A stretch of DNA of 64,000 nucleotides from Leptonemataceae bacterium (GCA_965227295.1 OZ245742.1:2912001-2976000); one strand, 5' to 3'. Counted from the stretch's first letter, positions 21,220 to 64,000 are shown. The notes: generated by a model not told the origin, from the letters alone. Numbers and translations are program-made.

Positions 21220-21735
21220 ATGGACTACGGCAAACTCATACCCGGCGTCGAATTTCTCGGCGATAACCCCGATGAAGAAGGCGCCGGCGAAGACATTCAT
21301 CAGTTTTTAACCTTCGCCGTGGCCGGTGGTGAGTACGGCATCGACGTCCTCGACACCCATGAAATCCTGAAGCCCGTGCTCGTTACGCGGCTGCCGAACG
21401 TAGAAGACGACGTCCTGGGCGTCATCAATTTACGCGGAAACATCATCCCCATTATCGATTTGAATCGCAAGTTTCGCGGCGAGTTCAGCGTCGTGGACGT
21501 GCAGTCGCGCATCATCGTCGTTCACCATCGTGGCAAGTACACCGGACTGTTGGTGGATCGGGTCCTGGAAGTCGCCCAGGTGCCGGAGTCCGGCCTGGAA
21601 GGCTCCGAGGTGCGCGGCCTGTCGAACGAGTACATCGAGGGCGTGGGTCGCAGCAAGGAGCGCCTGTTTCTGATCCTGAACCTGGACATCATCATCAATC
21701 GTCCCGCGGCGGAAATCCAGGAGGCACAGAGCTGA
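21220..21735 (+). CDS. cheW: Chemotaxis adaptor CheW
   Basis: QFLTF, GVINLRGNIIPIIDL, GLLVDRV. Confidence 0.95.
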   Translation: MDYGKLIPGVEFLGDNPDEEGAGEDIHQFLTFAVAGGEYGIDVLDTHEILKPVLVTRLPNVEDDVLGVINLRGNIIPIIDLNRKFRGEFSVVDVQSRIIVVHHRGKYTGLLVDRVLEVAQVPESGLEGSEVRGLSNEYIEGVGRSKERLFLILNLDIIINRPAAEIQEAQS

Positions 21736-24700
21736 TGTCCGACAGCAATCAGGAACGGTACCTCGACATCTTCCTCGAAGAGGCGTCCGAGCAAATCGAC
21801 AATCTCAACGAGAGCCTGCTGCGCCTCGAAAAAGAAGGCGCTCAGGACGGAATCATCAACGAACTCTTTCGCAGCGCGCATACGCTGAAATCGGCGGCGG
21901 CTTTCGTCGGCTTCGATCGCCTCAGCGCGCTCTCGCACAGCATGGAGGATCTGCTCCAGAAGGTTCGCGACGACGAACTGCAAATCAGTACCGAACTGGC
22001 GAACCTCTTTTTTCAGATTGTAGACCGCATTCGCTCGTTTCTTTCGAAGGTTTCCGCGGGTCAGGAAGCGCCGGAGGAATTCGACGATCTTACCCAGGCC
22101 ATCGAGAGTTACGCCGCCGGTGGCGGATCCGTCGCGCAAAGTACATCTGAGCAAAAGTTAGCGGACCCGCCGCCCGCCGCTCCCGCGGTTACGGCCGAAC
22201 CGGCAGGTGCCGCTGCGCCCGCGGAGTCGTCGCCGCCCGCTGCATCGACCGCGTCCGCAAGCGGCGGCGATAAAATGGAATTCATCCAGCTCAGCGCGGA
22301 AGAAGAAGAGGAACTGCGTTCTCTCGCCGGGAGTAAGAACATCTTCGACGGCTGCGTCCGCCTGGACCGCGATTCGGCCATGAAGAACATGCGCTACCTG
22401 CTGCTCTTCGAAAATCTCAAACGCGAGGCGAATCTCTTTCGCTCGCATCCCGGGTCGGAGGCCCTGGAAGGTGACGAGGACATTGAGGCCCTGCGGTTCA
22501 TCGTCTACGGCGACATCGATCGGGCGAAGCTCGCTGCCGTCTGCCAGGTGGATATGGTGGAAGAAGTCCGCCTCGCGGAGCACGCCGTGCCCGGAGCGGC
22601 ACGCCGCCGCCAGGACATGGACAGCGGCCAGGAATCCCGCATTCAATCCAAGAACATCAAGGTGTCGTCCGAGAAGATCGACTACCTCATGAACAACGTC
22701 GGCGAGTTGGTCATCATCAACTCGGGTTTGCAGAAGATCTACGAAGACATGCAAACGAACATGGGCGAATCGGCGGCCCTCTCCGAACTCAAAAACAAGA
22801 TCGACCAGGCCGAGCGCATTGCCCGCGATTTGCAGTCGGGTATCATGAAGACGCGCATGATCCCGGTGGGGCTGGTCTTTCATCGCTTCACGCGACCGGT
22901 GCGGGACCTGTCTCTGGAAATGAACAAGGACGTGGAGCTGGAGTTCCACGGCGAAGACACCGAACTCGACAAGAACATCATCGACGCCCTTTCGGAACCG
23001 CTGTTGCACCTGCTGCGGAACTCCATGGACCACGGCATTGAATCGGCGGAAGAGCGGGCGAAGACCGGCAAACCCCCCGCCGCGAAACTTGCACTCAACT
23101 CGTATCAGAGCGGGAACAACATTATCATCGAGGTCTCCGACGACGGCCGCGGCCTCAATCGCCAGCGCATCTTTCAGCAGGCCGTGAAGAAAGGCCTGGT
23201 GAACCCCGACGCGGACCTGCGCGACGAAGAAGTCTACGACTTAATCTTTCACTCCGGCTTCTCCACGGCGGACGCCGTGACCGACATCAGCGGCCGCGGC
23301 GTGGGCATGAACGTCGTAAAGAAGATGGTCGAAGACTTTAAGGGCAACGTGCAGATTGTCTCCACTCCGGGCCAGGGCACCACGTTTCTGCTGTCGTTCC
23401 CGCTGACGCTGGCCATCTTTTCGGCCATCATTGTTTCGCTGAAAGACGAAGAATACGCCTTCCCCCTGGCCGATGTCGTGGAAACCATTAAGGTCTCCCA
23501 GGATGAAATTACGTCTTTGCAGGGCCGCGACATCATTAACCTGCGCGGCGACATCCTGCCGGTCTTTCACCTGGGCGAGATCATGGGTTTCCCGCCGGAA
23601 GAGGAAGTCGAAGAGTTCCCCGTGCTCATTGCCATGTCAGCGAACCGCAAGGTCGGCTTCATCGTCGACGGACTCAACGGCAAACGTGAAATCGTAATCA
23701 AATCTCTGGAGCAAAACTTCAAGAGTGTGCGCGGACTCATCGGCGCGTCGATCATGGGGGACGGCCGCATCATCATGGTCGTCGACGTCCAGGGCCTGCT
23801 GGACATGACCCAGCGGCGCGGCCTCAAGGAACTGCCCGGGCGCCAGCTCGAAGAAGTCCACGACGCCACCGAAGCTTACGCTGCGGTGCAGGCCTACAAC
23901 GAACGCGTGGCGGAGCTGATCGAACAGCAACGCCAGTCGGCCATGGAATGGGAGTTCGGTTTCGACGAGGAGCTCGCTGAAGAGCGTCGCAAAGTCGAAG
24001 CCCAGGCCCTGGCCACCGGCGTCGCCGCGGGAACGTCCGCTCCCGCCCCGGCGGCGATTCCGGCGGACTCCCGGGCCGGCGACAGCCGCGACACGTCCCG
24101 GATGATGCGCGACGAAATGGAGCGCCGCCCGGACTCCGGCGGCTCCGGACGCGCCGATACCATTCCCGCGCGCCCCGTGGCGCCCATGCCTGGAGAAGCG
24201 GCACCGGCGGCGCCCGCTCCGGAGAAAGAACGCGCCGCGCCCCTGCGCGAACTCTCCGAAGAGGATTATCAAAAATTGTTTTCATTGATCAGCACCGGCA
24301 TGACCAATGCCGGCGGGGTTCTGTCCCAGTTGCTCGGCGTGAAGGTCGAGGTCTCCGTTCCGGAGTTCAAGACCATGGAGTACTCCGATCTCCGCGGCCA
24401 CATGCCGAAGGGCGGTCTGCTCGCTTCGGCGGTGGAGGCCGAGGAGGGCATGGACGCCGTCGTCCTTTTGGTCTTCGACGAAACCACCGGTTACCAGGCG
24501 GCAGGGGATCTCATGGGCGTCCCGCAGGAGCAATGGGGGCCGGACGGCATCAGCGACGAGGACCTGGGGTCCGTGCTCATGGAGTTGATCAACATCGTCG
24601 GCGCCAGCGTTTTGAACGAGATGTCCAACAAGACCGGCCTGACCATTACGCCGACGGTACCCGAGTTCCGGCGCGGCGACTCCGAAAAGATCGTGCAGTG

Positions 24701-24854
24701 GATCGACGAAAAAGAAGGCAAGGGTGCCGAAGCCCGCGGCCTCAAAGTGCTCTACATCACCGCCGACTTCTTCCGCCAGGACCTGGAGTTCCTGGGACGA
24801 CTGTTCATGATTCCGTCGTCACGCTCCCTGGCCAGAGTGGTAAACAAACTCTGA
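21735..24854 (+). CDS. cheA: Chemotaxis kinase CheA with C-terminal CheC-like domain
   Basis: Hpt FRSAHTLKS, NNVGELVI, HLLRNSMDHGIE, DDGRG, SGRGVGM, CheW domain; C-terminal about 200 aa CheC-like with ELINI. Confidence 0.95.
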   Translation: MSDSNQERYLDIFLEEASEQIDNLNESLLRLEKEGAQDGIINELFRSAHTLKSAAAFVGFDRLSALSHSMEDLLQKVRDDELQISTELANLFFQIVDRIRSFLSKVSAGQEAPEEFDDLTQAIESYAAGGGSVAQSTSEQKLADPPPAAPAVTAEPAGAAAPAESSPPAASTASASGGDKMEFIQLSAEEEEELRSLAGSKNIFDGCVRLDRDSAMKNMRYLLLFENLKREANLFRSHPGSEALEGDEDIEALRFIVYGDIDRAKLAAVCQVDMVEEVRLAEHAVPGAARRRQDMDSGQESRIQSKNIKVSSEKIDYLMNNVGELVIINSGLQKIYEDMQTNMGESAALSELKNKIDQAERIARDLQSGIMKTRMIPVGLVFHRFTRPVRDLSLEMNKDVELEFHGEDTELDKNIIDALSEPLLHLLRNSMDHGIESAEERAKTGKPPAAKLALNSYQSGNNIIIEVSDDGRGLNRQRIFQQAVKKGLVNPDADLRDEEVYDLIFHSGFSTADAVTDISGRGVGMNVVKKMVEDFKGNVQIVSTPGQGTTFLLSFPLTLAIFSAIIVSLKDEEYAFPLADVVETIKVSQDEITSLQGRDIINLRGDILPVFHLGEIMGFPPEEEVEEFPVLIAMSANRKVGFIVDGLNGKREIVIKSLEQNFKSVRGLIGASIMGDGRIIMVVDVQGLLDMTQRRGLKELPGRQLEEVHDATEAYAAVQAYNERVAELIEQQRQSAMEWEFGFDEELAEERRKVEAQALATGVAAGTSAPAPAAIPADSRAGDSRDTSRMMRDEMERRPDSGGSGRADTIPARPVAPMPGEAAPAAPAPEKERAAPLRELSEEDYQKLFSLISTGMTNAGGVLSQLLGVKVEVSVPEFKTMEYSDLRGHMPKGGLLASAVEAEEGMDAVVLLVFDETTGYQAAGDLMGVPQEQWGPDGISDEDLGSVLMELINIVGASVLNEMSNKTGLTITPTVPEFRRGDSEKIVQWIDEKEGKGAEARGLKVLYITADFFRQDLEFLGRLFMIPSSRSLARVVNKL

Positions 24855-24885
24855 ACGACCGGTTTACTTTTTAATTAATTCATCT

Positions 24886-25956
24886 ATGACCTTTCGCATC
24901 CTACTCGTGGACGACAGTCGCCTCACCCGGCGCATCGTCTCAGATGTACTTACAGGCATAGACGGCGTGAGCATTGCCGGGGAGGCGGGCAACGGCAAGG
25001 AGTGCCTGGAGTTTCTGCGTACCCATGCGGTTCCGGATTTGATCATCATGGACGTGGAGATGCCCGAACTGGACGGCATTGCCACGCTGAAGATGATGCA
25101 GCAGGAAGGCCTGAAAGTACCCGTGCTCATGCTCTCCGTGCTGACCCAGGCCGGAGCCTTTACCACGTTTCGCGCTCTCGATCTGGGCGCCCTGGATTTC
25201 GTACCCAAGCCCGGTCCCGACAGTGACCTGGGCGTGGAACAGATTGAAAGTCTGCTGAAGAATCGTGTGCAGGAAATCATTCAGAGTCGTCAGGATACCG
25301 GCCCGGCCCGGCCGGTACCGGCGGTTTCCGGTTCGCCGGACGGCACCGCGCCCCGGGTCAACCTGTCCACGCCGGCCGTGCCCGGACAGTACGATGTGTT
25401 GCTCATCGGCGCTTCGACGGGCGGCCCCCAGGCGCTTCAGGAAATCTTCCGCAATCTTCCGCAAAACTTTCCAGCACCGGTCATCCTTGTGCAGCACATG
25501 CCGCCGTTTTTTACGGCGGCCTTCGCGGATCGTTTGAACAATCTCGGCTCACTTTCGGTAGTGGAAGCGATCAGCGGGATGCCGCTCAAGCCGGGTCACG
25601 CCTACGTGGCGCCGGGAAATCGACACCTGCTCGTTACAACGAACGGTGACGAAGTTCTTACGGAACTGAACGATGATCCGCCGCTGCGCGCGCATAAACC
25701 GGCGATTGACAGGACACTGCTGTCCGTGGTAGACGCCTACGGTGGACGGGCCGCGGCGCTGATCATGACCGGAATGGGTCGAGACGGCGTCGAAGGCGCG
25801 CAGGCGCTCTGCCGGGCCGGGGGCTTCGTCCTCGCGCAGGATGAGGCGTCCAGTGTTGTGTACGGCATGAACCGCCGGGCGGTGGAAGCCGGAGTGGTGC
25901 ACGAAGTGGTACCGCTAAAAAATATAGTTGAAGTTCTATCCAGATATTTTCCTTAG
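24886..25956 (+). CDS. cheB: Chemotaxis methylesterase CheB
   Basis: Receiver domain plus GASTGGP, VQHMP, TGMGRDG. Confidence 0.96.
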   Translation: MTFRILLVDDSRLTRRIVSDVLTGIDGVSIAGEAGNGKECLEFLRTHAVPDLIIMDVEMPELDGIATLKMMQQEGLKVPVLMLSVLTQAGAFTTFRALDLGALDFVPKPGPDSDLGVEQIESLLKNRVQEIIQSRQDTGPARPVPAVSGSPDGTAPRVNLSTPAVPGQYDVLLIGASTGGPQALQEIFRNLPQNFPAPVILVQHMPPFFTAAFADRLNNLGSLSVVEAISGMPLKPGHAYVAPGNRHLLVTTNGDEVLTELNDDPPLRAHKPAIDRTLLSVVDAYGGRAAALIMTGMGRDGVEGAQALCRAGGFVLAQDEASSVVYGMNRRAVEAGVVHEVVPLKNIVEVLSRYFP

Positions 25957-25972
25957 ACGGGAGGGGTATACT

Positions 25973-26332
25973 GTGGCTCGCGTGCTCATAGTTGATGATG
26001 CAAAATTTATGCGTACTCTGGTGCGGGATGCTTTAACCGCGGCAGGGCACGAGATCGTCGGAGAGGCCGAAAACGGCAATCAGGCGGTCGCCATGTATGA
26101 CGAAACCAAACCGGATCTTGTGACCATGGACATCACCATGCGCGAGAAGGACGGTCTGGAGGCTGCTCAGGAGATTCTCTCTAAAGACGGAGCGGCGCGC
26201 ATCATCATGGTTACGGCTCTCGGTCAGGAGGATCTCCTGGCGAAGGCCATCAAAATGGGCGTAAAGGACTTTGTAGTCAAACCGTTCCCGCCGGAGCGTC
26301 TCCAGCAGGCCGCGGCGAAAGCCCTGAGCTGA
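25973..26332 (+). CDS. cheY: Chemotaxis response regulator CheY
   Basis: GTG start after GGAGG; IVDDAKFMR, VTMDITM, KPF. Confidence 0.93.
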   Translation: MARVLIVDDAKFMRTLVRDALTAAGHEIVGEAENGNQAVAMYDETKPDLVTMDITMREKDGLEAAQEILSKDGAARIIMVTALGQEDLLAKAIKMGVKDFVVKPFPPERLQQAAAKALS

Positions 26333-40948: not shown

Positions 40949-42439
40949 GTGCCGATTATGATCCGTCCCTTCTATTCGCTGAATCTTTCCGCCAAGATCA
41001 CGCTCCTCACCGCGTCGATGTTCATCATCGTTCTCGGCTTCTTAACGATCTATAACTACCTGCGCGACTATCAGCAGGTGGAAGAGAAGTTCGGCTGGAC
41101 TCTCGAACACATCGCGGCGACGGCGGCGGTCTCCATTGACGGCGACGAACACGCCGCTGTCATGCAGGCCGGTGACGAAAGCAGTGCTGTCTTCCGAAAT
41201 ATCCGCGGGCAACTGGAACGCGTGAAGCGTGCCAACGATCTGAGCAACGAAACGATCTATACCTTTCACGTCGTGGATGCCGCGGCCGGCGAACTGGAGT
41301 TCGCGGTGATGCTGCATCCCGTCCCCTTCGTCGGCGACCCGTACACCGTGCCGGAAAACATCCGCCCCATCGTACAAACCGTCATTCGGGACAAACACTC
41401 GGCCTACACGCCGCTCTATACGGACGAGCACGGCTCCTGGATCTCCGGCTACGCTCCCATTGTAAACGGTGCCGGCGAGCTCCGCGGCATTCTCGCCGTC
41501 GACTACCAGGTCGATCGATTTCTCATGGCCCTTTACGAAGACGTCGCGCGCACGCTGTTGTACGATCTCGGCTTCGTTCTGCTCGGCGTGGCGCTCAGCT
41601 TCTGGTTGTCCCGGCGCATCTCGCGTCCGGTGGAGCGCCTGAGCGTGGCGGCCCGAAGCATCATGGAAGAAAAGTACGACTTCAAACTGCCGGTGCAATC
41701 CAGGGACGAGATCGGCCAGCTCACGGAGACGTTCAATTCCATGGCGGCCAGCCTGCGGGAACGCCTGCTCATGTTCCGCTACGTCCCGCGGCATACGAAA
41801 GAAATGATCCGTAAGTTGATCTCAGGTGAAGTTTCGGCGAAGGGCGAGCAGAAAGACGTGGCCGTTCTCTTTACCGACATCCGCGGTTTTACGAAGTTCA
41901 GCAGCACGAACTCCGCCGAACACGTCATTGCCGCGTTAAATCGCTACCTCGGCATGCAGGCGGAGATCATCGAGTGGCACGACGGCTACGTCGACAAGTT
42001 CGTCGGCGACGAGGTCGTGGCGGTCTTCGAAGGCCCCGATCGCGGACGCAGCGCGCTGCTCGCCGCCGTGGACATCCACAATCGCCTGGAGCGCGAAGCC
42101 GCGGAGGCCGAACGCGGCGGCGGCGCGGCCCTCTACGTCGGCATCGGCCTCAGCATGGGCCCCGTGGTCATGGGTAACATGGGCAGCGCCGCACGCCAGG
42201 ACTACACCGTAATCGGCGACAATGTAAACTTAGCGGCCCGGCTGTGCAACGCCGCGAAGCCCGGGGAAATTTTGCTCTCTTCGAACATCTTTCGGGCGGT
42301 GGAGGACGACGCCCGTATCCGGGAGCTCTGCGAAATCCGACTCTACGGTCTGGCGCGGGTGAAGGGCTTCGACGAAGAGATGCATCTGTATCGCATCGGC
42401 GGGGAAGATCGGAAGGGCGCCCTGGCGGAAGCTCGCTGA
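40949..42439 (+). CDS. Membrane-bound class III adenylate cyclase (periplasmic sensor, HAMP, cyclase)
   Basis: Two TMs, HAMP DEIGQL, LFTDIRGFT, DKFVGD, DYTVIGDNVNLAARL. Confidence 0.92.
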   Translation: MPIMIRPFYSLNLSAKITLLTASMFIIVLGFLTIYNYLRDYQQVEEKFGWTLEHIAATAAVSIDGDEHAAVMQAGDESSAVFRNIRGQLERVKRANDLSNETIYTFHVVDAAAGELEFAVMLHPVPFVGDPYTVPENIRPIVQTVIRDKHSAYTPLYTDEHGSWISGYAPIVNGAGELRGILAVDYQVDRFLMALYEDVARTLLYDLGFVLLGVALSFWLSRRISRPVERLSVAARSIMEEKYDFKLPVQSRDEIGQLTETFNSMAASLRERLLMFRYVPRHTKEMIRKLISGEVSAKGEQKDVAVLFTDIRGFTKFSSTNSAEHVIAALNRYLGMQAEIIEWHDGYVDKFVGDEVVAVFEGPDRGRSALLAAVDIHNRLEREAAEAERGGGAALYVGIGLSMGPVVMGNMGSAARQDYTVIGDNVNLAARLCNAAKPGEILLSSNIFRAVEDDARIRELCEIRLYGLARVKGFDEEMHLYRIGGEDRKGALAEAR

Positions 42440-49838: not shown

Positions 49839-50714
49839 TCAGGTCCGGAAGTTTTCCAGATTTACCGTCTCCAGGACCTGGCGGCGCTGCTCCAGGCGCT
49901 CGGCCAGGGTTTGCAGTAACTTGCGAGACCAGCGCGGATGCAGCTGGAATAACATGTGAAAGTCCTCGGGACCGAAGGCGAGGGCGCGGGTCTTTTCCAC
50001 GGCGATGACGTCGGCCGAACGGGGCAGGCCGTCAAACTGAGCCATCTCGCCGGCCATGTCGCCGGTGCCCAGGCTGTCGATGAGTCGCCGCTCCGTGGCT
50101 CCGGGAGCGGTCTGGTAAACCTGGACTTTGCCCGATAATAAAATATAGAGTTCCTGAGTTTCGTCGCCCTGGCGGATGAGCGCCTCGCCGGGTTCGAAGT
50201 CCCGGGCGAGTTGCTCCACCAGGTGCGGCGGAAATTCATCCTCGTCGGCGAAGGACATTTCGTACAGGGCGTCGGCCAGGCCGGCGTCGGGACTGCCCAG
50301 GGAAACGTAGTGCTCGCGTTTGAGATCCGGGTCTGTCGTTGAACGATGCTGATCATAAATGCGAATGCGCCGGGAAAGTTCGAAGATGGCACGCCGGGCG
50401 ACCTCGGGCTGGATCTCCAGGGCCGCCGCGAAATCCTCGACGTGCCAGAGGGCGTAGTGGGAACCAGGGTAGACTCCCACGGCTCCGGGCCGGGGTGAAC
50501 CCAGGAGGTAATCCTCCAGGCCAATGAACGATACCGGATAGTAGTTCTCGAACAACGTGCGCCGGTCGGTCAACTGGACACGACGCCGGGCCCGGCCTTC
50601 CAGGAGCATCAGAATCGTATTCGGCCGACGGTCGGCCTCGTAGCGGAGGATGTTGCGATAGCGGCCGCTCTCATTGAAGAGACCCCGCCGGACGAATTTC
50701 TTCAGTTCGAGCAT
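49839..50714 (-). CDS. Cyclic-nucleotide-binding domain protein
   Basis: C-terminal IRQGD, LYILLSGKV, GEMA, PRSADV; degenerate N-terminal cNMP-like domain. Confidence 0.85.
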   Translation of the reverse strand: MLELKKFVRRGLFNESGRYRNILRYEADRRPNTILMLLEGRARRRVQLTDRRTLFENYYPVSFIGLEDYLLGSPRPGAVGVYPGSHYALWHVEDFAAALEIQPEVARRAIFELSRRIRIYDQHRSTTDPDLKREHYVSLGSPDAGLADALYEMSFADEDEFPPHLVEQLARDFEPGEALIRQGDETQELYILLSGKVQVYQTAPGATERRLIDSLGTGDMAGEMAQFDGLPRSADVIAVEKTRALAFGPEDFHMLFQLHPRWSRKLLQTLAERLEQRRQVLETVNLENFRT

Positions 50715-54683: not shown

Positions 54684-56450
54684 ATGCACTTCAGCTCCGG
54701 CGATCTGATCGTCATCGTCCTCTACTTCGCGGTGAGCCTGGGCGCGGGCATTCTGCGTTCCCGCCGCGCGTCGTCGTCGTTGACGGACTACTTTCTCTCC
54801 GGGCGTTCCGCGCCGTGGTGGCTCGTCGGCACCGGCATGGTGGCCACGACCTTCGCCGCCGATACGCCGCTCTGGGTCGCCGGCAAGGTCGGCTCGCACG
54901 GCATCTCCGGCAACTGGCTGTGGTGGTCGGCGGCGGCGGGCGGCATGCTCACGGTTTTTTTCTTCGCGCGATTGTGGCGACGCGCGGGAGTGCTCACGGA
55001 CCTGGAGTTCATCGAACTGCGCTACGGCGGACGCACCGCTTCGTTTCTGCGCGGCTTCAAAGCGATCTACTTCGGCGTCTTCATGAACTGCATCGTCCTC
55101 GGCTGGGTAAACCTGGCCATGTTGAAGATCGTCGGTGTCTTCTTTCCGGAGATTGCGCATCCGGAATGGATCGTAACCGGCATTGCGCTCGCGACGCTCG
55201 TGTACGTCGCCGCGGCCGGACTGTGGGGCGTGATGATCGCCGACGCCTTTCAGTTCGCCGTGGCCCTCGGCGGTTGCATCATCCTCGCGTATTTTGCCGT
55301 GCAGCATCCGGCGGTGGTTGAGGCCGGCGGCCTGGTGAATGCATTGCCCGCGCAGAGCTTCGATTTTTTTCCGGACTTCGGTGATGGCGGCGCGGGTTTT
55401 GAAAAGATCGCGTTGAGCGCCTTTCTCGCGTACGTGATGATTCAATGGTGGGCGTCCTGGTATCCGGGCAGCGAGCCGGGCGGCGGCGGTTACATTGCCC
55501 AGCGCATCATGTCCGCGAAGGACGAACGTCACGGCATGCTGGCCACGTTGTGGTTTGTGATCGCGCACTACTGCGTGCGTTCCTGGCCCTGGATCATCGC
55601 CGCGCTGGCCGCGGTGGTGATTTATCCGGATCTCGGCGGCGATGAACGTGAGGCAAGTTTTGTCTATTTAATCCGCGACGTTCTGCCCGCGCCCCTCCGC
55701 GGTCTTCTGGTGGCCGCCTTTCTCGGCGCCTATATGTCCACGCTGTCCACGCATTTGAACTGGGGCAGTTCCTACGTCATCAACGACTTCTATTTGCGGT
55801 ACTTCGCCGGCACCCGTGCTAACCGTTCGCAGGACGATGTTAGCGCGGATCACATTTTGGCCTCGCGGATCGTTACGGTATGCATTGCCGTGCTCGCGCT
55901 CGTGGTTTCATTCTTTCTCATGGACAGCATTCGCGGGGCCTGGGATTTTCTTTTGAGTATTACCGGCGGCATGGGTTTCGTTTTGATTCTGCGCTGGTAC
56001 TGGTGGCGCATCAACGCCGTGGCGGAGCTGGTTTCCATGATCGCCCCTCTGGTCGCCCTGTTGCTGCTGTGGGTGGCCGAGGCCGCGTTCGGTTTTCAGC
56101 CGCCGGGGGCGCCGGAGAATCTGTACTTCGTCGTGCCGGTTTCGATTTTCGTAACTCTCGTTGCCATGTACTTAAGCAAGCCCGAAGGCCGGACGGTGCT
56201 GGCAGAGTTTTGTGCCCGGGTGCGCCCGCCCGGGCCGGGCTGGAAGGCGATCACCGGCAGGAGCGAAGCCGGCCTTGGCCGGGCCTTTGTCGGCTGGGCG
56301 GCCTCAGTGGTGCTCGTCTATGCCGCGTTGTTTTTCGTCGGCGCGTTGCTTTTTGAAATCTACGACCGCGCCGCGATCCTTGGTGCCGTGGCATTGATGG
56401 CGGCGTTCGTGGTTCGGGAAGTGATTCGCCGCGAGTTTCGGAAAGATTGA
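54684..56450 (+). CDS. Sodium:solute symporter family protein
   Basis: DYFLSGRSAPWW, ATTFAADTP, FIELRY, AQRIMSAKDE, AYMSTLS. Confidence 0.93.
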   Translation: MHFSSGDLIVIVLYFAVSLGAGILRSRRASSSLTDYFLSGRSAPWWLVGTGMVATTFAADTPLWVAGKVGSHGISGNWLWWSAAAGGMLTVFFFARLWRRAGVLTDLEFIELRYGGRTASFLRGFKAIYFGVFMNCIVLGWVNLAMLKIVGVFFPEIAHPEWIVTGIALATLVYVAAAGLWGVMIADAFQFAVALGGCIILAYFAVQHPAVVEAGGLVNALPAQSFDFFPDFGDGGAGFEKIALSAFLAYVMIQWWASWYPGSEPGGGGYIAQRIMSAKDERHGMLATLWFVIAHYCVRSWPWIIAALAAVVIYPDLGGDEREASFVYLIRDVLPAPLRGLLVAAFLGAYMSTLSTHLNWGSSYVINDFYLRYFAGTRANRSQDDVSADHILASRIVTVCIAVLALVVSFFLMDSIRGAWDFLLSITGGMGFVLILRWYWWRINAVAELVSMIAPLVALLLLWVAEAAFGFQPPGAPENLYFVVPVSIFVTLVAMYLSKPEGRTVLAEFCARVRPPGPGWKAITGRSEAGLGRAFVGWAASVVLVYAALFFVGALLFEIYDRAAILGAVALMAAFVVREVIRREFRKD

Positions 56451-56468
56451 GCGAGTGCGCCTTCGCTT

Positions 56469-57197
56469 TGCGGAATTGTGAAGGGGTTTTGATGGCTACG
56501 GCGAAGCGGGAGTTGTGGTGATTCGTTTTGCAAAGAACGCTGCCAGTGGGGAACCAACTGCCGCGGCCCCAACAAGTGGGGCCTTGCCGACACCGGACGT
56601 TGGTTTGCGACTCAGTTACCGCAGCGTTTCCTGCGACGAAGACGGCGGGGACCTATGCTTTCCGCTGATGCGGAAAGCCGGCGGTTCAGAACTCTCGCCG
56701 AAGCGAGAATTCTGCCGGTGCGCCTTACCGCATTCCCCGGCATGACCTCCGTTCATCTGCTGGAACCAGCCGTACCCAAAAAAGTCTTAATGCAAACTGA
56801 CCGTCACTTACACCACGATTCGGGGCGTGCGCAAACTGTCCGAGCGTTTCCGGTAATTCAAGGACTGCGGTTCGTGACTGTTGCTGTGAGACACATGAGG
56901 TAAATTGCGCAACGTGAAAGGCCTTTTTTTGCTACGGCTGAGCGGGAGTTGTGGTGATTCGTTTTGCAAAGAACGCTGCGTTCGACCCGGACGTTGGTTT
57001 GCGACTCAGTTACCGCAGCGTTTCCTACGACGAAGACGCCGGGGACTTATGCTTTCCACATTCCCCGGCATAACCTCCGCACGTCAGTTGGAACCAGTTG
57101 TGACCATAAACGGCTTAATACAAACTGGCTGCTACTTACACCACGATCCGGGGCGTGTGCGAATAACTGGAGCATTTCCGGAAATTCAAGAGTTGCG
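56469..57197 (-). repeat. Head-to-tail array of about 2 units of the 328-bp family, reverse orientation
   Basis: GGGGCGT anchors end at 56828 and 57156 (328 bp apart); the reverse complement matches the 48599-49810 units. Confidence 0.95.
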
Positions 57198-57492
57198 ATG
57201 CGCGCGGAATGATTACTAAGTATGGTTTATATTTCGCGGGGCCCTCTTAAAGGTCTTCAGGCTTGCACTGCGAATATTGTTTCGATTCCTGCCGTTCGGC
57301 CGAATCATTTGCAACGTCGTTCACATGCTAACAGCCCCGGCGTGAATCGCTGCACAACACTCATCTTTTTAAACTTTATGAATCGTTAAGCCTCGCTTCG
57401 CGGCGTTTCTGTTTGTGCCGCACGCCTTGTTCGTTGTAGCGGTAAACCTCCGCCCGGGACCGGCGGTGCAGTTACAACGCGGAGTAAACTTC

Positions 57493-57858
57493 ATGAAAAT
57501 ATTGATCGTAGACGATTCCGAGATGATGCGCGGCGTGATCCGCCAGGCGCTCTCGGACAATCTTCCCGACAGCAATCCCGAGATTGACGAGGCCGGCGAC
57601 GGCGCGGTCGCCCTGGAAAAAATTCGCAGCGCGTCTTTCGATGTCGTCTTCCTGGACTGGAACATGCCGGTGCTGGACGGCCTGGGCTTCGTTACCGAGG
57701 TGCGCAAGGCCGGTATCCATACGCCCATCGTAATGATCTCTTCCGTAACCGATGAAGAAAAAATCTTAGAGGCCGGCCGGGCCGGTGTGAACGCCTACGT
57801 CGAGAAACCCGTGCGCGGGGTGAAACTCTGGGAACAGGTCAAGGAGTTCCTGCAATGA
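57493..57858 (+). CDS. Single-domain response regulator (CheY-like)
   Basis: MKILIVDDS, FLDWNMPVLDG, KP; GGAG RBS. Confidence 0.92.
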   Translation: MKILIVDDSEMMRGVIRQALSDNLPDSNPEIDEAGDGAVALEKIRSASFDVVFLDWNMPVLDGLGFVTEVRKAGIHTPIVMISSVTDEEKILEAGRAGVNAYVEKPVRGVKLWEQVKEFLQ

Positions 57859-58331
57859 GTGCGGGACTGAGCATGCGTCCGTTCCTCGACGCCCTTAATC
57901 GAACCCTCGCCGACATGGCCGACGAACATCCATCCAACAGTGACATCGTCCGCTGCGAGGGCGAACGGGTGGTCTCGGACGTGACCGCGAGCGTGGGCAT
58001 CTTCGGTCCGGAGCCGGGGAGTCTGATCCTCGTCATGAACGCGGCGGTGGCCCGGGATCTGTGCAAACGCACCACGGGCCGCAGCGATACCGAACTGGAG
58101 GATCGCCTGGTCCTCGACGCGGTGGGTGAACTGATAAACATGATCGTCGGGGTCGCCGGCGGAGCGAGTTCGGTGCGGTTCGACTTTTCCCTGCCGGTTT
58201 CCACCGGGGTCGAAAGCCACGAAGTGCGCATCTTGCGCAGCACGAACTTTGAGAAAGTCGTATCGAAGATTTCCTCCGGTGAGGTCGCGTTGTATCTGGT
58301 GCACGGTAGACTGCCCCCGGCCGCGAGCTAA
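57855..58331 (+). CDS. CheX-like phosphatase
   Basis: DVTASVGIFG...GSL, LDAVGELINMIVG (ExxN), FSLP; ATGA overlap with the regulator. Confidence 0.8.
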   Translation: MSAGLSMRPFLDALNRTLADMADEHPSNSDIVRCEGERVVSDVTASVGIFGPEPGSLILVMNAAVARDLCKRTTGRSDTELEDRLVLDAVGELINMIVGVAGGASSVRFDFSLPVSTGVESHEVRILRSTNFEKVVSKISSGEVALYLVHGRLPPAAS

Positions 58332-58338
58332 GTACACC

Positions 58339-61300
58339 ATGCTTAAACTTAAGGGATACGAGCTCGGCGAGCGCCTCTACGGCGGCGAGCGCACGGCGGT
58401 CTGGCGTGCGGTGCGCAGCGCCGACGGCGTGCCGGTCATCGTCAAAGTTCCGCGCCGGGATGCGCCGCCGGAGGAACGTGCGAAACTGCGCCAGGAATTC
58501 GAAATCGCCCGGGAGCTGGCGCAGGAAATCTCCGGCGTGGTCCGCCCCCTGTTCCTTGAGTTGCCGGAGGATGCGAGCGCGGGCAGCGGCGCGGTGCTGA
58601 TTCTGGAGGACGGCGGCGGCATGTCTCTCGCGCAGTTTCTGGAACAGGGCGTGCCGGACATCGATACGGCCCTGGAGATCGCCGTGCAGATCGCGAGCAT
58701 CCTGGGCGAGGTGCATGCCCGGGGCGTCGTGCACAAGGACGTGAAGCCGCACAACATCATCCTCGAACCGCGCGAACTTCGAATTCAACTTACCGACTTC
58801 GGCATTTCGTCGAGGTTAAGCCGGGAACATGCCGTCTCCGGAATACCCGGACGCCTGCAGGGGACCCTGGCCTACGTAAGCCCGGAACAGACCGGGCGCA
58901 TGAATCGCCTGGTCGACAACCGCTCTGACTTCTATTCACTGGGAGTTACTCTGTATGAGTTAGTCACGGGATTGCTTCCGTTTCCGCATGCGGCGGATGC
59001 CCTGGAATTGATCCATCATCACATCGCCGTGCCGCCGCGCTCTCCGCTGGAACATCGCGCGGACGTGCCGCCGTCCCTCGCGGCCGTGATGATGAAACTG
59101 CTCGCCAAGAATGCCGAAGATCGTTACCAGAGCGCTTACGGCCTCTTCCACGACCTGGACGAAATTCGAACCTGCCGCGCTCAGTTCGGCAACGGCACCG
59201 CGCCGGAACTCGTTGAACGTTTCGAGCAGAGCTTCGTTCCCGGGCGCCAGGATGTCTCCGATCGTTTTCAGATTCCGCAGAAACTCTACGGCCGCGAAGA
59301 GGAATCCGCTCAGATGTTGCAGTCCTTCCAGCGTTGTGCCCGCGGCCGAAGTGAACTGTTGTTAGTGGCCGGCTTTTCCGGCATCGGTAAATCGGCGTTG
59401 GTTAACGAGGTGCAGAAACCCATCACGGAACGCAAGGGCAACTTCGTCGCCGGCAAGTTCGATCAGTTTCAACGCGACCTACCGTACAGCGCTCTGTTGC
59501 AGGCCTTCGGCCGATTGATCCGCCGGCTCCTGGGCGACGAGCAGAGTACGGTGGAGATTCGGGCGGAGCGGCTGCGGGAATGTCTGGGACAGAACGGTCG
59601 CGTGCTTACGGATGTGCTTCCCGAACTGCAATGGCTGATCGGTGAACAACCGCCGGTGGTGGAGCTCCCTCCGGCCGAGAGTGAGAATCGCTTCAACGCC
59701 GTGTTCCGCGATTTCGTGCGGGCCCTGGCCGGCGAAGAACATCCCCTGGCGATCTTTCTCGACGATTTGCAGTGGGCGGACGCGTCGAGTCTTAAGTTAA
59801 TCCGAACAATCATTACCGATACGGACACGAACTACTTTCTAATCATCGGTGCTTACCGGGACAACGAAGTGGACGCGGCGCATCCGCTTACCGCGCTCAT
59901 GGAACGCTTCGCAAACGAAACAGAGCAGCGCCTGACCGTGATTACGCTCGCCCCGCTGAATCGGGAAACGCTTAAGTCCGTCGTTGCGGAGACCCTGCAC
60001 GTAAGTTCGGAGGAAGCCCGGGGCCTGGCGGACCTGGTGCATGCGAAGACCGGCGGCAATCCCTTTTTCGTAAACGAGTTTCTGCGCACATTGCACGACA
60101 AAGCCCTGGTGCAGTTCGATGCCGGAAGCGGCCGCTGGGGTTGGGACCTGGAACGCATCGCCGCCGAGGGCATCACGGATAACGTGGTCGAGCTGATGGC
60201 GGATCGCATTCGGGATCTGCCGCCGGAAACCGGGCGGGCGTTGCAGACGGCGGCGTGCATCGGCAACGTTTTCGAGCTACGAGACCTGGCGCGTTTCCTC
60301 GAACGTGAGATCGGTGCGACGGCGCGTTTGTTACGTGAGGCGCTCAATGAAGGTTTGATCCTGGCCCTGGATCAAAACTACAACTACGCCGAGAGCGAAG
60401 AGCTGGATGTTTCGTATCGTTTCCTGCACGACCGCGTGCAGCAGGCCGCCTATGAACTCATCGACGCGGCCGAACGTCCGGCCCTGCATTTGCGCATCGG
60501 CCGGGAGATGCTCACTTTCGGCGAACAGGAAATCGAAGACGATCTCTTTACGCTGGTAAATCATCTGAACGAGGGCCGCTCGCTCCTCGACGACCTGGAC
60601 GAGCGTCGGCGCCTGGCCGAGCTGAACTTACGGGCCGGGCGCAAGGCCCTGGCCAGTACGGCCTACGCTTCCGCCGCGCGTTTCTTAAGGTTCGGCGTCG
60701 AGATGTTAGGCGAGTATCACCGGGAAGAGGACAATCGACTGTGCCTGGATTTGTACTTGAGCCTGGCCGATGCCGAGTCCCTGCGCCCGAATTTTGAAGA
60801 AGCGGAACGACTGATCGAGTTGCTCTTCGAGCGCGCGACGGAGCCGCTCGATCAGGTCCGGGCCGGGCAGATTCGTACGCGTATTCTGAACGCGCGCAGT
60901 CGCATTGCGGATTCTCTCACGGCCGGTCTGGAAAACCTCGGTCGCCTGGGCGTGCACATTCCGCAACGCCCGTCGGCTGTGCGCGTCCTTCGAGAATTTG
61001 GACGCACACTCCTGGTCGTCATGCGGCGCGGCCGACGTTATCCGTTGCGCGCGAAGCAGGTGGAGGCTCCGGTCATCCTGGCGGCGCTGAACGTTCTGGA
61101 CGATACGGTCTCCGTCGCGTACCAACAAAACGCTAACGTACTCGCAATCATCATTTGTAAGATCGTGCAGTTGACGTATCGCCACGGACTGTCGCGCTAC
61201 GCGCCCTTCGGTATCGCCGGTTTCGGTTATTTGAACCTGGTGGCCTTCGAACGTTTGAAGGCCGCCAGGTGGTACGTGGACCTGGCGCTGCAATTGCTCG

Positions 61301-64000
61301 AAGCGGGTTACGGGCGTGAGTCCATCGGCCGGGTCAACGTTTTTGCGTACGCCTTCGTCGGTCATCGTCACTCGCCCTGGGCGCGGCACTTCACGGCCCT
61401 GGAGAACGGCGGTCGCGAGGCCCTGGTTTCCGGGGACGTCGAGTACGGCATGTACGGTTTTCTATTTCGCGCGAACCACGCCGTGTTCGCGCACGAGAGC
61501 CTCGCAGAACTCGCGGAACGTTTCGCAATGACCATCGACCAGGCGGACAAACTCGAAGCCGGCCAGAGCGGTGATCCGGCCCGGGTGTGGGCTCAGTTCG
61601 TAGACAACCTGCGGGGCCGCGCCGATGATCCGGCGGTACTCCGCGGCCGCTACCTGGATCATGAGCTGGCCGTCGAACATCATCTGGCGAACGGATATAA
61701 GGGCGGTGCCGCCTGGACCCTGTGCGCGCGCTCCATGCTGCGCTACCTCTTTGATCGTGAAGGTGACAACGCTGGCGACCTGGCCGCGGCCCTGGAGTTC
61801 GAGGAAAGCCTCGCGAATATGGTGGTCCTGCCGTACATCTACATGTTTCAAATTTTAGCGACACTCGATAATTTCCGGAAAGAATCTCGTCGCGAACGTC
61901 GCCGGCGCCTGAAGATCTATCGTAAGGCCAGGCGGTTCCTGGGACTGTGGGCGCGGGGTTGTCCGCAAAACTACGAGCATCTGTTATTATGGGCGGAGGC
62001 AACGCATCTATTAGAAACGGGACGGGAAGAAGAGTCTCTTGCGATTTTCGATGCAGCCGTGCGTGCGGCACGGCGAGCCCGTTCGAATCTCGGTGAAGGC
62101 CTCGTACTCGAAGCCTCCGCCAGGGCCTACGAGAGCTGCGGGCGGGAGGTGATGGCCCGGGCCTGTGTCGAAGAATGTCGGGCCGTGTTTCGCAGCTTCG
62201 GCGCCGAAGCAAAGGTGGAACAACTGGAAGAACGTTACGCCGCGTACTTTCGTTCGAAGCGCGGCGGCGGGCGTTCCAACCGGGAGACTTCCAGTTCCGA
62301 AGTCACCATGCTCGACGTCGCGGGGGGTGTGGACCTGGACCTCGGCGCCGTGATGGAAGCGGTGGGGGCGATTTCGTCGGAGGTGCGATTCAAACCGCTG
62401 CTCGAACGCCTGACACATAGCCTTCTGGAAAACAGCGGTGCCGATCGTTGTTTCATTCTACTGAGTTACGATGACAAACTATTAGTGCACGCCGCCGGCC
62501 GGCGCGATGCGGACTCCGGGATCCGCATCGAGTTGCGTGAGGCGGAAGCGCCCGCCGAAAAACTGAGCGCCGGTGTTGCCGATGTCCGAAGCAGTCGGCA
62601 GATGAAAATTACCGCCGGCGGCGAAACAACGGAAGTCGCGGCACCGATTCTGTACCAGGGCCGTCTCGACGGCGTTGTGATCCTGCATACCGCGTTGCCG
62701 TTCCAGGACGCCCACGCTGGCACCCTGGATCTTCTATGCGCTCAGGCCGCCATCTCCCTGGATACGGCGCGGCTCTACGAAGAACTGGAAGGCCAGGTGC
62801 GCTCGCGTACCCGGGAATTGCGCCGATCCCGACGCGAAATGTACGACATCATGGACAACGTCAGCCAGGGCCTTCTGGTCCTGGATCGGCACGGTCGCCT
62901 GGGCAATGAGTACTCGCGCAGCGCGGCAGAAATCCTGGAACGCGACGATCTGGGCGGGTTGAGTTTTTATCGTCTCTTTCCCGACGCAAACGTGCGCCGG
63001 TCTTCGGCCGCTCTGGTGGAGCAGCTCTTCGAAAACGGCTTCATGTCCGCGGCAATGTTCGACCGGGCGAACTCGCTGAAAGGCTATCGTTATCTGTATG
63101 TGGACGCGGATCGCAAGCAGGCCGTGAAGATCCTGGACTTCGGTTTTTCCCGCATGCTGGCCCACGGGAGCGGAGACTCCGGGGCCGTGCAAAAATTGAT
63201 GGTGACTATCGAAGACCGTACACGGGATTATCAACTGGAACGCGAACTGGAGCGCCGCAAGGTCGAACAGGAAAGTCGGGTGGAGAAACTCTACGAAATA
63301 CTGCGCCTCGAACCGGCGGTGTTTTCCGGGTTTCTCAACGAGGGCCGCGAGGGCGTGGAGTTTTTGCGCGGGCGCATTGCCGACCGCGGTGTGGACGGAA
63401 CGGAGAACCGTACGATCCTGGAAGATTGTCTGCGCGCGGTGCACGCGCTGAAGGGCAACGCCGGTGTCATGAACCTGGATACGATCGCCCGGCGCGCGCA
63501 TACGCTGGAGGACCGTCTGGAAGATTTGTGCCGCCGCCTGGATGAGAATCAGGAGGATTATCGTCTGGATGAAGACGGCGTGGAGGCGGTGGTCGAGGGC
63601 CTCGCCGATCTCGAAGAAGAACTGCGCGATGGGGACCGGGTCTTCCAACGCGTGCTGAACATCAAGCAGGCCCTGGGCGGAAACGAGGGGCCGACCTTCG
63701 AATCCCTCGAAGAGTACTTTCGCACGGCGGTGGAGCGTGCCGCGCGACAGGCCGGCAAAGACGTGCGCTTCGAGTTTCTGCGTCGCCCCGGCGTTTCCAG
63801 TGCCGATGCATCCTTGATTGATGACATCAAAAATCCCATTACCCAACTGTTGCGCAATTCCGTGGGCCACGGCATTGAAACCGACGAGCAGCGGCGTCGC
63901 GCTTCGAAAGAACTGCCGGGCACCGTCCTCGTGGAGGTGGATACGATCTATGTGACGGCAGCGCAACGTTTACTGCACGTCACGGTGCGGGACAACGGCC
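58339..64000 (+). CDS. Giant hybrid kinase: Ser/Thr kinase, AAA/STAND ATPase, helical region, GAF, PAS, Hpt, CheA-type HATPase (3' end outside window)
   Basis: All motifs are in the frame of ATG 58339, and the ORF track shows no terminated ORF in that frame: HKDVKPHN, DFG, GTLAYVSPE, GFSGIGKS, FLDDLQWAD, GGNPFF, FLHDRVQQAAY, AQAAISL, VHALKG, LLRNSVGHGIE, RDNG. Confidence 0.9.
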   Translation, partial: MLKLKGYELGERLYGGERTAVWRAVRSADGVPVIVKVPRRDAPPEERAKLRQEFEIARELAQEISGVVRPLFLELPEDASAGSGAVLILEDGGGMSLAQFLEQGVPDIDTALEIAVQIASILGEVHARGVVHKDVKPHNIILEPRELRIQLTDFGISSRLSREHAVSGIPGRLQGTLAYVSPEQTGRMNRLVDNRSDFYSLGVTLYELVTGLLPFPHAADALELIHHHIAVPPRSPLEHRADVPPSLAAVMMKLLAKNAEDRYQSAYGLFHDLDEIRTCRAQFGNGTAPELVERFEQSFVPGRQDVSDRFQIPQKLYGREEESAQMLQSFQRCARGRSELLLVAGFSGIGKSALVNEVQKPITERKGNFVAGKFDQFQRDLPYSALLQAFGRLIRRLLGDEQSTVEIRAERLRECLGQNGRVLTDVLPELQWLIGEQPPVVELPPAESENRFNAVFRDFVRALAGEEHPLAIFLDDLQWADASSLKLIRTIITDTDTNYFLIIGAYRDNEVDAAHPLTALMERFANETEQRLTVITLAPLNRETLKSVVAETLHVSSEEARGLADLVHAKTGGNPFFVNEFLRTLHDKALVQFDAGSGRWGWDLERIAAEGITDNVVELMADRIRDLPPETGRALQTAACIGNVFELRDLARFLEREIGATARLLREALNEGLILALDQNYNYAESEELDVSYRFLHDRVQQAAYELIDAAERPALHLRIGREMLTFGEQEIEDDLFTLVNHLNEGRSLLDDLDERRRLAELNLRAGRKALASTAYASAARFLRFGVEMLGEYHREEDNRLCLDLYLSLADAESLRPNFEEAERLIELLFERATEPLDQVRAGQIRTRILNARSRIADSLTAGLENLGRLGVHIPQRPSAVRVLREFGRTLLVVMRRGRRYPLRAKQVEAPVILAALNVLDDTVSVAYQQNANVLAIIICKIVQLTYRHGLSRYAPFGIAGFGYLNLVAFERLKAARWYVDLALQLLEAGYGRESIGRVNVFAYAFVGHRHSPWARHFTALENGGREALVSGDVEYGMYGFLFRANHAVFAHESLAELAERFAMTIDQADKLEAGQSGDPARVWAQFVDNLRGRADDPAVLRGRYLDHELAVEHHLANGYKGGAAWTLCARSMLRYLFDREGDNAGDLAAALEFEESLANMVVLPYIYMFQILATLDNFRKESRRERRRRLKIYRKARRFLGLWARGCPQNYEHLLLWAEATHLLETGREEESLAIFDAAVRAARRARSNLGEGLVLEASARAYESCGREVMARACVEECRAVFRSFGAEAKVEQLEERYAAYFRSKRGGGRSNRETSSSEVTMLDVAGGVDLDLGAVMEAVGAISSEVRFKPLLERLTHSLLENSGADRCFILLSYDDKLLVHAAGRRDADSGIRIELREAEAPAEKLSAGVADVRSSRQMKITAGGETTEVAAPILYQGRLDGVVILHTALPFQDAHAGTLDLLCAQAAISLDTARLYEELEGQVRSRTRELRRSRREMYDIMDNVSQGLLVLDRHGRLGNEYSRSAAEILERDDLGGLSFYRLFPDANVRRSSAALVEQLFENGFMSAAMFDRANSLKGYRYLYVDADRKQAVKILDFGFSRMLAHGSGDSGAVQKLMVTIEDRTRDYQLERELERRKVEQESRVEKLYEILRLEPAVFSGFLNEGREGVEFLRGRIADRGVDGTENRTILEDCLRAVHALKGNAGVMNLDTIARRAHTLEDRLEDLCRRLDENQEDYRLDEDGVEAVVEGLADLEEELRDGDRVFQRVLNIKQALGGNEGPTFESLEEYFRTAVERAARQAGKDVRFEFLRRPGVSSADASLIDDIKNPITQLLRNSVGHGIETDEQRRRASKELPGTVLVEVDTIYVTAAQRLLHVTVRDNG

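Follow-up and report, generated by a model that had tools for sequence, protein, structure and literature searches.

A candidate class III histidine kinase system with a Ser/Thr kinase and AAA_16 input chassis, encoded by a putative four-gene operon in a Leptonemataceae bacterium

A stretch of 64,000 nucleotides from the genome of a Leptonemataceae bacterium (GCA_965227295.1, OZ245742.1:2912001-2976000; G000:C1:2912001-2976000 in our notation, referred to here as the window) was analyzed together with the next 20 kb downstream, and "window-equivalent" coordinates continue the numbering past position 64000. At its 3' end the window carries a cheY-like gene, a cheX gene, and most of a gene for a very large kinase, designated kinase A; a second gene of the same kind, kinase B, follows. 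Taken as a whole, the evidence makes it probable that these genes form a four-gene operon, with kinase B and the terminator just outside the window, and that the operon encodes a two-component system of the class III histidine kinase (HKIII) type, whose cytoplasmic kinases of about 2,000 amino acids would join a large input chassis to a CheA-derived core consisting of an Hpt domain and a CheA-type ATPase (P4) domain.

The genes lie on the plus strand in the order cheY-like, cheX, kinase A, and kinase B, followed by a terminator-like hairpin. The cheY-like gene (57493..57858; 121 amino acids; Pfam Response_reg, 5.1e-24) and cheX (57855..58331; 158 amino acids; Pfam CheX, 7.1e-12, 45.7 bits against a cut-off of 27) overlap by 4 nucleotides at the stop of the former and the start of the latter. 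An open frame from 58249 to 63999 reaches the end of the window, and the ATG at 58339, 8 nucleotides past the cheX stop, is the likely start of kinase A. An earlier reading of the window, made from the sequence alone (the sequence-only reading), had counted at least 1,887 codons in this frame, and the count was correct: codons 1 to 1887 run uninterrupted from 58339 to 64000. What that reading could not see was whether a CheW domain or further genes followed. In the downstream sequence, kinase A (58339..64266 window-equivalent, stop included; 1,975 amino acids) ends 266 nucleotides beyond the window, immediately at the end of its HATPase_c match and without CheW, and kinase B (64279-70371 window-equivalent, plus strand; 2,030 amino acids) begins 12 nucleotides later. 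The two kinases are 46% identical over their full length and have the same domains according to Pfam. A hairpin of 8 G-C pairs with a T-run, which is terminator-like, lies 50 nucleotides 3' of kinase B, and the next gene encodes an unrelated glycosidase.

The great length of the frame and the single-contig assembly were the only grounds for suspecting that two genes had been falsely fused into one frame by assembly or annotation, and nothing that pointed to such an artifact was found. The 1,975-codon frame contains no stop. In a 13,414-nucleotide contig of sequencing run X1 that spans positions 57400-64000, neither a gap nor a difference was seen, and contigs of run X2 also showed 0 differences; these contigs, from two runs of the same study that may be the source data of the assembly itself, contain no indel, stop, or frameshift across the frame. 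Furthermore, collinear full-length orthologues are present in two related genomes (G019 and G008), and the same layout is present in 52 representatives of a protein library. Thus, a false fusion is extremely improbable.

Profile searches and structural modeling support a CheA-type core in the C-terminal part of the kinase. An AlphaFold2 (AF2) model of residues 1480-1975, built with 43 family rows, had a mean predicted local distance difference test (pLDDT) score of 91.9 and a predicted template-modeling score (pTM) of 0.58. In this model, a long helix is followed by a PAS-like alpha/beta domain (62869..63216, residues 1511-1626; strands and helices at model residues 32-147), a second long helix, a four-helix Hpt bundle (63313..63672, residues 1659-1778; Pfam Hpt, 2.6e-8, 34 bits against a cut-off of 24.6), an 8-residue linker, and a P4 fold (63697..64000, continuing to 64263 beyond the window; residues 1787-1975; Pfam HATPase_c, 8.3e-12). 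The Hpt helices span model residues 180-203, 208-231, 235-257, and 266-299, and His1702 (63442), which is predicted to be phosphorylatable, lies within the motif VHALKG in the second of these. The N-box of P4, LLRNSVGHGIE, starts at L1837 (63847) and includes N1840.

In searches of the PDB with the family profile, P4 structures of CheA were matched with E values of 1e-56 to 6e-67 and P1 structures of CheA (1tqg, 2ld6, and 1i5n) with E values of about 1e-9 to 5e-14, in agreement with the Hpt and CheA-type HATPase proposed in the sequence-only reading. Class I kinases scored 20 to 40 bits against the profile, over the last 45 residues only. The top Foldseek matches were the P3P4 and P4 regions of CheA, with TM scores of 0.77 to 0.87 when normalized to the P4 targets, and NCBIfam CheA models aligned to the P4 part only, far under their cut-offs. 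The GAF and PAS domains that had also been proposed fared unequally. GAF was recovered as a weak match of 29 bits, but Pfam gave no PAS match in kinase A at E ≤ 0.01, and a PAS-like fold appeared in the AF2 model only; in kinase B a Pfam PAS match of 8e-4 was below the cut-off.

Pfam searches of kinase A found no match to CheW or H-kinase_dim at E ≤ 0.01, although no HHpred-type search was made, whereas the canonical CheA encoded in the window, which served as a positive control, matched both (CheW, 1.8e-28; H-kinase_dim, 4.6e-17). Neither Pfam nor the AF2 model revealed P2, P3, or P5 in the C-terminal 500 residues. Because the linker between Hpt helix 4 and P4 is only 8 residues long in the model, there is no space for a P3 hairpin. 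A homodimer prediction for the module of residues 1480-1975 scored 0.23 (mark, 0.42) and weighs neither way.

Kinase A resembles CheA in its Hpt domain, which carries the H-x-L-K-G site, and in its P4 domain, where the N, G1, and G2 boxes are of the CheA type. It differs in that it has no P2, P3, or P5, has input domains of its own (Pkinase, AAA_16, GAF, and PAS-like), and is encoded outside any che operon with CheW, MCP, CheR, or CheB; the canonical CheA of the window has all of these. Berry, Andrianova, and Zhulin (2023; PMC10542144) found Hpt, a dimerization domain, HATPase_c, and CheW in every CheA homologue and emphasized that CheA is devoid of an input domain. Kinase A lacks P3 and CheW/P5 and does have its own input, and it is therefore not a CheA. 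The canonical che operon of the window is located at 21220-26332 on the plus strand, with CheW at 21220-21735 and CheA at 21735-24854, followed by CheB and CheY. Its CheA, of 1,039 amino acids, consists of Hpt, P2, H-kinase_dim, HATPase_c, CheW, and a C-terminal CheC-like stretch; the same survey (PMC10542144) describes fusions with CheC or CheX for the F1 CheAs that occur in the class Leptospirae. The genome is of a motile type and holds four canonical CheAs.

Kinases A and B fit the HKIII design. HKIII proteins consist of sensory domains, Hpt, and a CheA-like kinase domain without a dimerization domain, and act with a single-domain regulator and CheX, in many instances together with a soluble unorthodox chemoreceptor. 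They reportedly occur in genomes that bear pilT, a correlate behind a proposed role in type IV pilus function, and reportedly also in genomes without chemotaxis genes. To our knowledge, the class is known from genome comparison only. As in that design, the input domains, Hpt, and CheA-like ATPase are in one polypeptide without a dimerization domain or CheW, a single-domain response regulator and CheX are encoded alongside the kinase, and in a FastTree phylogeny the P4 domain of kinase A groups with kinases lacking CheW, apart from canonical CheA. Unlike a kinase with a simple sensor, however, kinase A has as its input a 1,480-amino-acid chassis that is itself predicted to have two additional enzymatic activities, and it is cytoplasmic and its gene is tandemly duplicated.

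Several observations weigh against an HKIII assignment. PilT was not detected at the curated cut-off (best TIGR01420 score, 181.9 versus 319.1 bits, in a genome that is 93.55% complete). There was no MCPsignal match in 25 flanking open reading frames (ORFs) at E ≤ 1e-5, and no chemoreceptor gene was found near the operon; the same result, with the lack of CheW/P5, P2, and P3, agrees with the proposal in the sequence-only reading that input does not come through MCP and CheW. The orthologue in G008, which has flanks of 1.2 kb on a short contig, has neither cheY nor cheX within them. Finally, the pTM of 0.58 makes the inter-domain geometry uncertain, so the model does not discriminate between phosphorylation in cis and in trans. 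Because PilT was not found at the cut-off and there is no soluble chemoreceptor nearby, the proposed role in type IV pilus function seems unlikely here.

The distinguishing feature of these kinases is the input chassis of 1,480 residues, composed of a Ser/Thr kinase domain, AAA_16, helical repeats, and GAF. In kinase A, the Ser/Thr kinase domain (58360..59133, residues 8-265; Pfam Pkinase, 2.4e-31) is intact, with K36, E53, D134 of the HKD motif, N139, and D153 of DFG; HKDVKPHN begins at H132 (58732), and D153 is encoded at 58795. The AAA_16 P-loop NTPase (59281..59847, residues 315-503; Pfam AAA_16, 4e-38), which may be STAND-like, has the Walker A motif GFSGIGKS from G345 (59371), including K351, and a Walker B motif, IFLDD, at D475/D476. 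Along with the His of VHALKG and the N-box, the Ser/Thr kinase and Walker motifs named in the sequence-only reading were all recovered on translation, and its coordinates agree with those given here. Matches to nSTAND1 and nSTAND6 were below threshold and extended over about 40 residues only, in contrast to the strong AAA_16 match. AAA_16 is followed by a helical-repeat region of about 700 amino acids (60196-62328, residues ~620-1330), and subthreshold matches to TPR_CHK1 were found in kinase B and in the G019 orthologue. The GAF domain (62398..62760, residues 1354-1474; Pfam GAF, 1.5e-6, 29 bits against a cut-off of 22.4) of kinase A gives a weak match and is shorter than usual, with a gap relative to kinase B visible in the alignment, whereas kinase B scored 71 bits and the orthologues in G019 and G008 scored 69 and 61 bits, respectively. 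This difference hints at divergence of the two paralogues.

The chassis is not restricted to histidine kinases. Residues 1 to ~1500 have 596 confirmed relatives in public genomes, and the 80 loci retained from that search, at 32 to 46% identity, are mostly cyanobacterial. The chassis also aligns, in the same range of identity, with seven further paralogues of the same genome (L136-L142), of about 1,750 to 1,990 amino acids, and the outputs of all seven are SpoIIE/PP2C (three) or adenylate/guanylate cyclase (Guanylate_cyc; four), with no histidine kinase among them. Because these paralogues and kinases A and B share the chassis, one input chassis is combined in this genome with any of three output modules, namely a PP2C, a cyclase, or the HKIII core. 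The expectation in the sequence-only reading that hybrids of this type end in other outputs was thus borne out by the phosphatases and cyclases of the paralogues. Sensors with a Pkinase-AAA_16-(TPR)-GAF arrangement and class I HisKA, PP2C, or cyclase outputs share the chassis, collinear over about 1,500 amino acids; kinase A differs from them in its HKIII-core output and its dedicated CheY-like protein and CheX. The Leptospira protein lic12324, for example, is listed in PMC5100919 as PK-AAA_16-GAF-SpoIIE. The window also encodes a HAMP-adenylate/guanylate cyclase (40949-42439, plus strand) and a protein with a cyclic-nucleotide (cNMP)-binding domain (49839-50714, minus strand), 8 to 17 kb upstream of the operon; together with the cyclase-ended paralogues, these genes suggest a large commitment of the genome to cyclic-nucleotide signaling.

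The complete architecture is found in many other bacteria. A profile of both paralogues from GAF to P4 was compared with 1.84 billion library representatives, and the best 150, 148 of them non-self, were taken. By our own domain profiles, 52 of the 148 have the whole architecture, which corresponds to at least 52 clusters at 50% identity; 68 are shorter proteins with PAS-like, Hpt, and P4 domains, and 28 are something else. Among the 52, the motif H-x-[LIVMF]-K-G is present in 49, and 50 end no more than 47 amino acids past P4; canonical CheAs have about 135 to 190 amino acids C-terminal to P4. The taxon labels, where given, were Spirochaetota, Bdellovibrionota (including Pseudobacteriovorax antillogorgiicola), Burkholderiales, Alteromonadaceae, Polyangiaceae, Pseudomonadota, and a metagenome-assembled genome of Bacillota, and the database names are generic ("AAA family ATPase," "histidine kinase," or similar). 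The fusion is not a singular rewiring of chemotaxis, given the at least 52 clusters and a class design that had already been named. No paper describing a Pkinase-AAA_16-GAF-Hpt-CheA-type kinase was found in the literature, although the supplements of the HKIII survey may list it; as far as searched, there is no description of the Ser/Thr kinase/AAA_16 input, of the paired genes in tandem, or of how widespread the sub-family is.

Residue conservation was scored in 59 proteins of the same architecture with per-domain hmmalign. The Hpt His is kept in 58 of the 59, and no member has lost the N-box Asn (N1840), the G1 box, or the G2 box; Walker A K351 is present in 56 and Walker B D475 in 58. The catalytic residues of the Ser/Thr kinase are conserved in fewer members (K36 and D134 in 52 each; N139 and the DFG Asp, D153, in 50 each). 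It could be argued from the loss of K36, D134, or the DFG Asp in 7 to 9 of the 59, from the atypical glycine-rich loop of the kinase domain, and from the degenerate GAF of kinase A that one half of the protein, either the Ser/Thr kinase or the histidine kinase core, is a vestigial pseudoenzyme and the protein a scaffold. However, kinases A and B both keep every residue scored, in the Ser/Thr kinase, Walker A and B, Hpt His, N-box, G1, and G2 alike, and the residues of the histidine kinase core are kept in 58 or 59 of the 59 proteins. A vestigial half is therefore very unlikely.

In a FastTree phylogeny of P4 with 186 rows and weak resolution, the 43 canonical CheAs fell nearly on one side (2 changes), and the HKIII-type and Ser/Thr kinase-type rows fell together. 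Kinases A and B were sisters (support, 98), which indicates a local tandem duplication. The Ser/Thr kinase-type rows and the other HKIII rows are intermixed, with 18 label changes, of which at least 10 are forced. Repeated fusion was considered as an explanation of this pattern and was not accepted, since some of the "short" metagenome proteins may be fragments. Metagenome context searches gave no relative with profile A2. Profile A4 gave 80 loci, all ordinary-CheA-like by our own parsing and used as a contrast only: none had a PAS-like match, and 79 had 97 to 319 amino acids after P4, the other (L171, at a contig end) having 21. None of 151 Myxococcota genomes had a match at E ≤ 1e-36, a threshold that is probably too strict for this result to be informative, and five named genomes gave P4-level matches only. 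Among the library proteins, P0137 (4,858 amino acids) combines, by our own profiles, a PAS-like domain and a single CheA-type P4 with a run of about 33 Hpt-like repeats, with no space left for CheW; there are about 15 such repeats in P0201 and about 5 in P0228.

The linkage of a CheY-like gene and cheX to an HKIII-type core is conserved under many different sensors. Whole-module matches were sought in 40 relatives and 400 genomes of the phylum, and the surroundings of the best 20 were examined. A gene for a stand-alone receiver (REC) domain and cheX were within one gene of the kinase in 18 of the 20 loci and within 3 kb in 19. They directly abutted the kinase in 16 loci and were separated from it by one gene in 2 (L115 and L126); in L119 they were 2.5 kb from the kinase, and in L123 both were missing. 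The inputs of the 20 kinases were an ammonium transporter (eight, including a third HKIII of this genome), HAMP (five), GAF (two), 7TMR-DISM (one), MASE6 (one), and the Ser/Thr kinase chassis (one, in G019), with none detected in two. The third HKIII of this genome (G000:C1:820151-822886; L112:7151-9886, minus strand) has Amt fused to PAS-like, Hpt, and P4 domains; a dedicated CheY-like gene and cheX precede it, and a gene for a receiver-adenylate/guanylate cyclase follows. It may be an ammonium-sensing CheA-type kinase. In the cassettes of L113, L114, L119, and L126, two tandem cheX genes lie beside a single CheY-like gene.

Among the matches listed for the 40 relatives, only those in G019 and G008 were full length. 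The G019 orthologue (37% identity) has cheX, a cheY-like gene, and SpoIIE downstream, and the G008 orthologue (36% identity), on its short contig, adjoins a flagellar rod gene. Two genomes of the same genus had, among the matches listed, matches to residues 1-1500 only.

The CheY-like regulator has D7/D8, a predicted phospho-acceptor, D55, in the sequence FLDWNMP, S83, Y102, and K105. The CheX protein, the product of one of four stand-alone CheX genes in the genome, carries the CheX motif D88-x3-E92-x2-N95. The sequence-only reading placed both in a chemotaxis-like circuit, and one possibility is receptor-independent taxis, in which the phosphorylated CheY-like protein would bind the flagellar switch and the giant cytoplasmic sensors would steer swimming directly. 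The regulator shows DWNMP around the acceptor Asp and Y-x-x-K-P, hallmarks of CheY; receivers of CheY and CheB are among its strongest NCBIfam matches; CheX belongs to a family of chemotaxis phosphatases; and the motile-type genome with four canonical CheAs and the flagellar rod gene beside the G008 orthologue would also fit such a role. However, the regulator shares only 28% identity with the CheY from the window's canonical che operon, and NCBIfam CheY models are far under their cut-offs (PRK10610, 74.5 bits versus 189). Moreover, the flanks of the cassettes in relatives include a receiver-cyclase in four loci (L112, L118, L120, and L129), other cyclases in three, and SpoIIE/PP2C in five (L111, L116, L124, L128, and L130), with no motility genes, and HKIII reportedly occur in genomes without chemotaxis genes. 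Thus, direct control of swimming seems unlikely, and a motor output for the circuit is conjectural. The notion, from REC-profile scores, that the cassette regulators form a subfamily of their own was dropped, as CheYs beside ordinary CheAs also scored 100 bits or more.

The same flanks raise another possibility, that the CheY-like protein and CheX serve mainly as a phosphate sink and reset and that the true output is a receiver enzyme encoded elsewhere, such as a REC-cyclase or a PP2C partner-switch module. In addition to the receiver-cyclase and SpoIIE genes beside the cassettes of relatives, the fusion of the same chassis to cyclase or SpoIIE in all seven other paralogues, and the HAMP-cyclase and cNMP-binding protein encoded in the window, point in this direction. 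Yet the operon itself has no receiver-cyclase or SpoIIE gene. A profile of the cassette REC proteins found no other receiver among six-frame ORFs in the 30 kb that start about 3.5 kb upstream of cheY, nor was a receiver found among the ORFs tested with Pfam between the che operon and the cheY-like gene. Furthermore, gene adjacency in relatives does not demonstrate phosphotransfer. We consider a sink role possible but rather doubtful. The flanks in relatives favor cyclic-nucleotide or partner-switch outputs.

In the HKIII-type system that we consider probable, a cytoplasmic signal, nucleotide exchange by AAA_16, and possibly Ser/Thr (auto)phosphorylation would change the conformation or oligomeric state of the kinase, and this change would reach the Hpt-P4 core by way of GAF, the PAS-like domain, and the helices that connect them. 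P4 would then phosphorylate His1702 of Hpt, the phosphoryl group would be handed on to the CheY-like protein at Asp55, and CheX would dephosphorylate and thereby reset the regulator. CheA is not known to have a phosphatase activity of its own, and a separate phosphatase such as CheX would therefore suit a CheA-type core. The genes, their domains, the intact catalytic residues, the placement among kinases lacking CheW and P3, and the conserved linkage to CheY-like and cheX genes are observed, whereas we infer the phosphotransfer steps, what the Ser/Thr kinase and the ATPase do, and the nature of both signal and cellular output; the proposed link of Ser/Thr to His-Asp phosphorylation likewise belongs to the interpretation. 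A bolder proposal is that nucleotide-driven oligomerization through AAA_16 and the helical repeats replaces both P3 dimerization and receptor arrays and gathers the P3-less Hpt-P4 cores for trans-autophosphorylation, that the Ser/Thr kinase gates this step through phosphorylation of the chassis, and that mixed oligomers of kinase A, with its degenerate GAF, and kinase B, with an intact one, integrate two signals. We think this improbable. If it were true, a chemotaxis-type kinase would here exist as a "signalosome" complete in itself.

G+C content is uniform across the operon. The 1-kb gap before the cheY-like gene (56450-57493) has a G+C content of 0.54 versus about 0.61 and contains a 104-codon ORF (56905-57219) to which no family was assigned; no Rfam match (E ≤ 0.1) and no sigma-70-like promoter were found in the upstream region 56300-57600. 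A gene of the phage-integrase family (L004:3255-4298; G000:C1:2989255-2990298) is located about 13 kb downstream of kinase B.

These kinases raise the question of what controls a catalytic domain of the CheA type when a dimerization domain, CheW, and receptors are all lacking. The soluble, cytoplasmic Ser/Thr kinase/AAA_16 version, with its confidently modeled 500-residue module of PAS-like, Hpt, and P4 domains, would be a tractable object for that question, and it would allow cross-talk between Ser/Thr and His-Asp phosphorylation to be addressed inside a single polypeptide. With PP2C, cyclase, and HKIII-core versions side by side in one genome, the chassis offers a clean natural example of modular rewiring.

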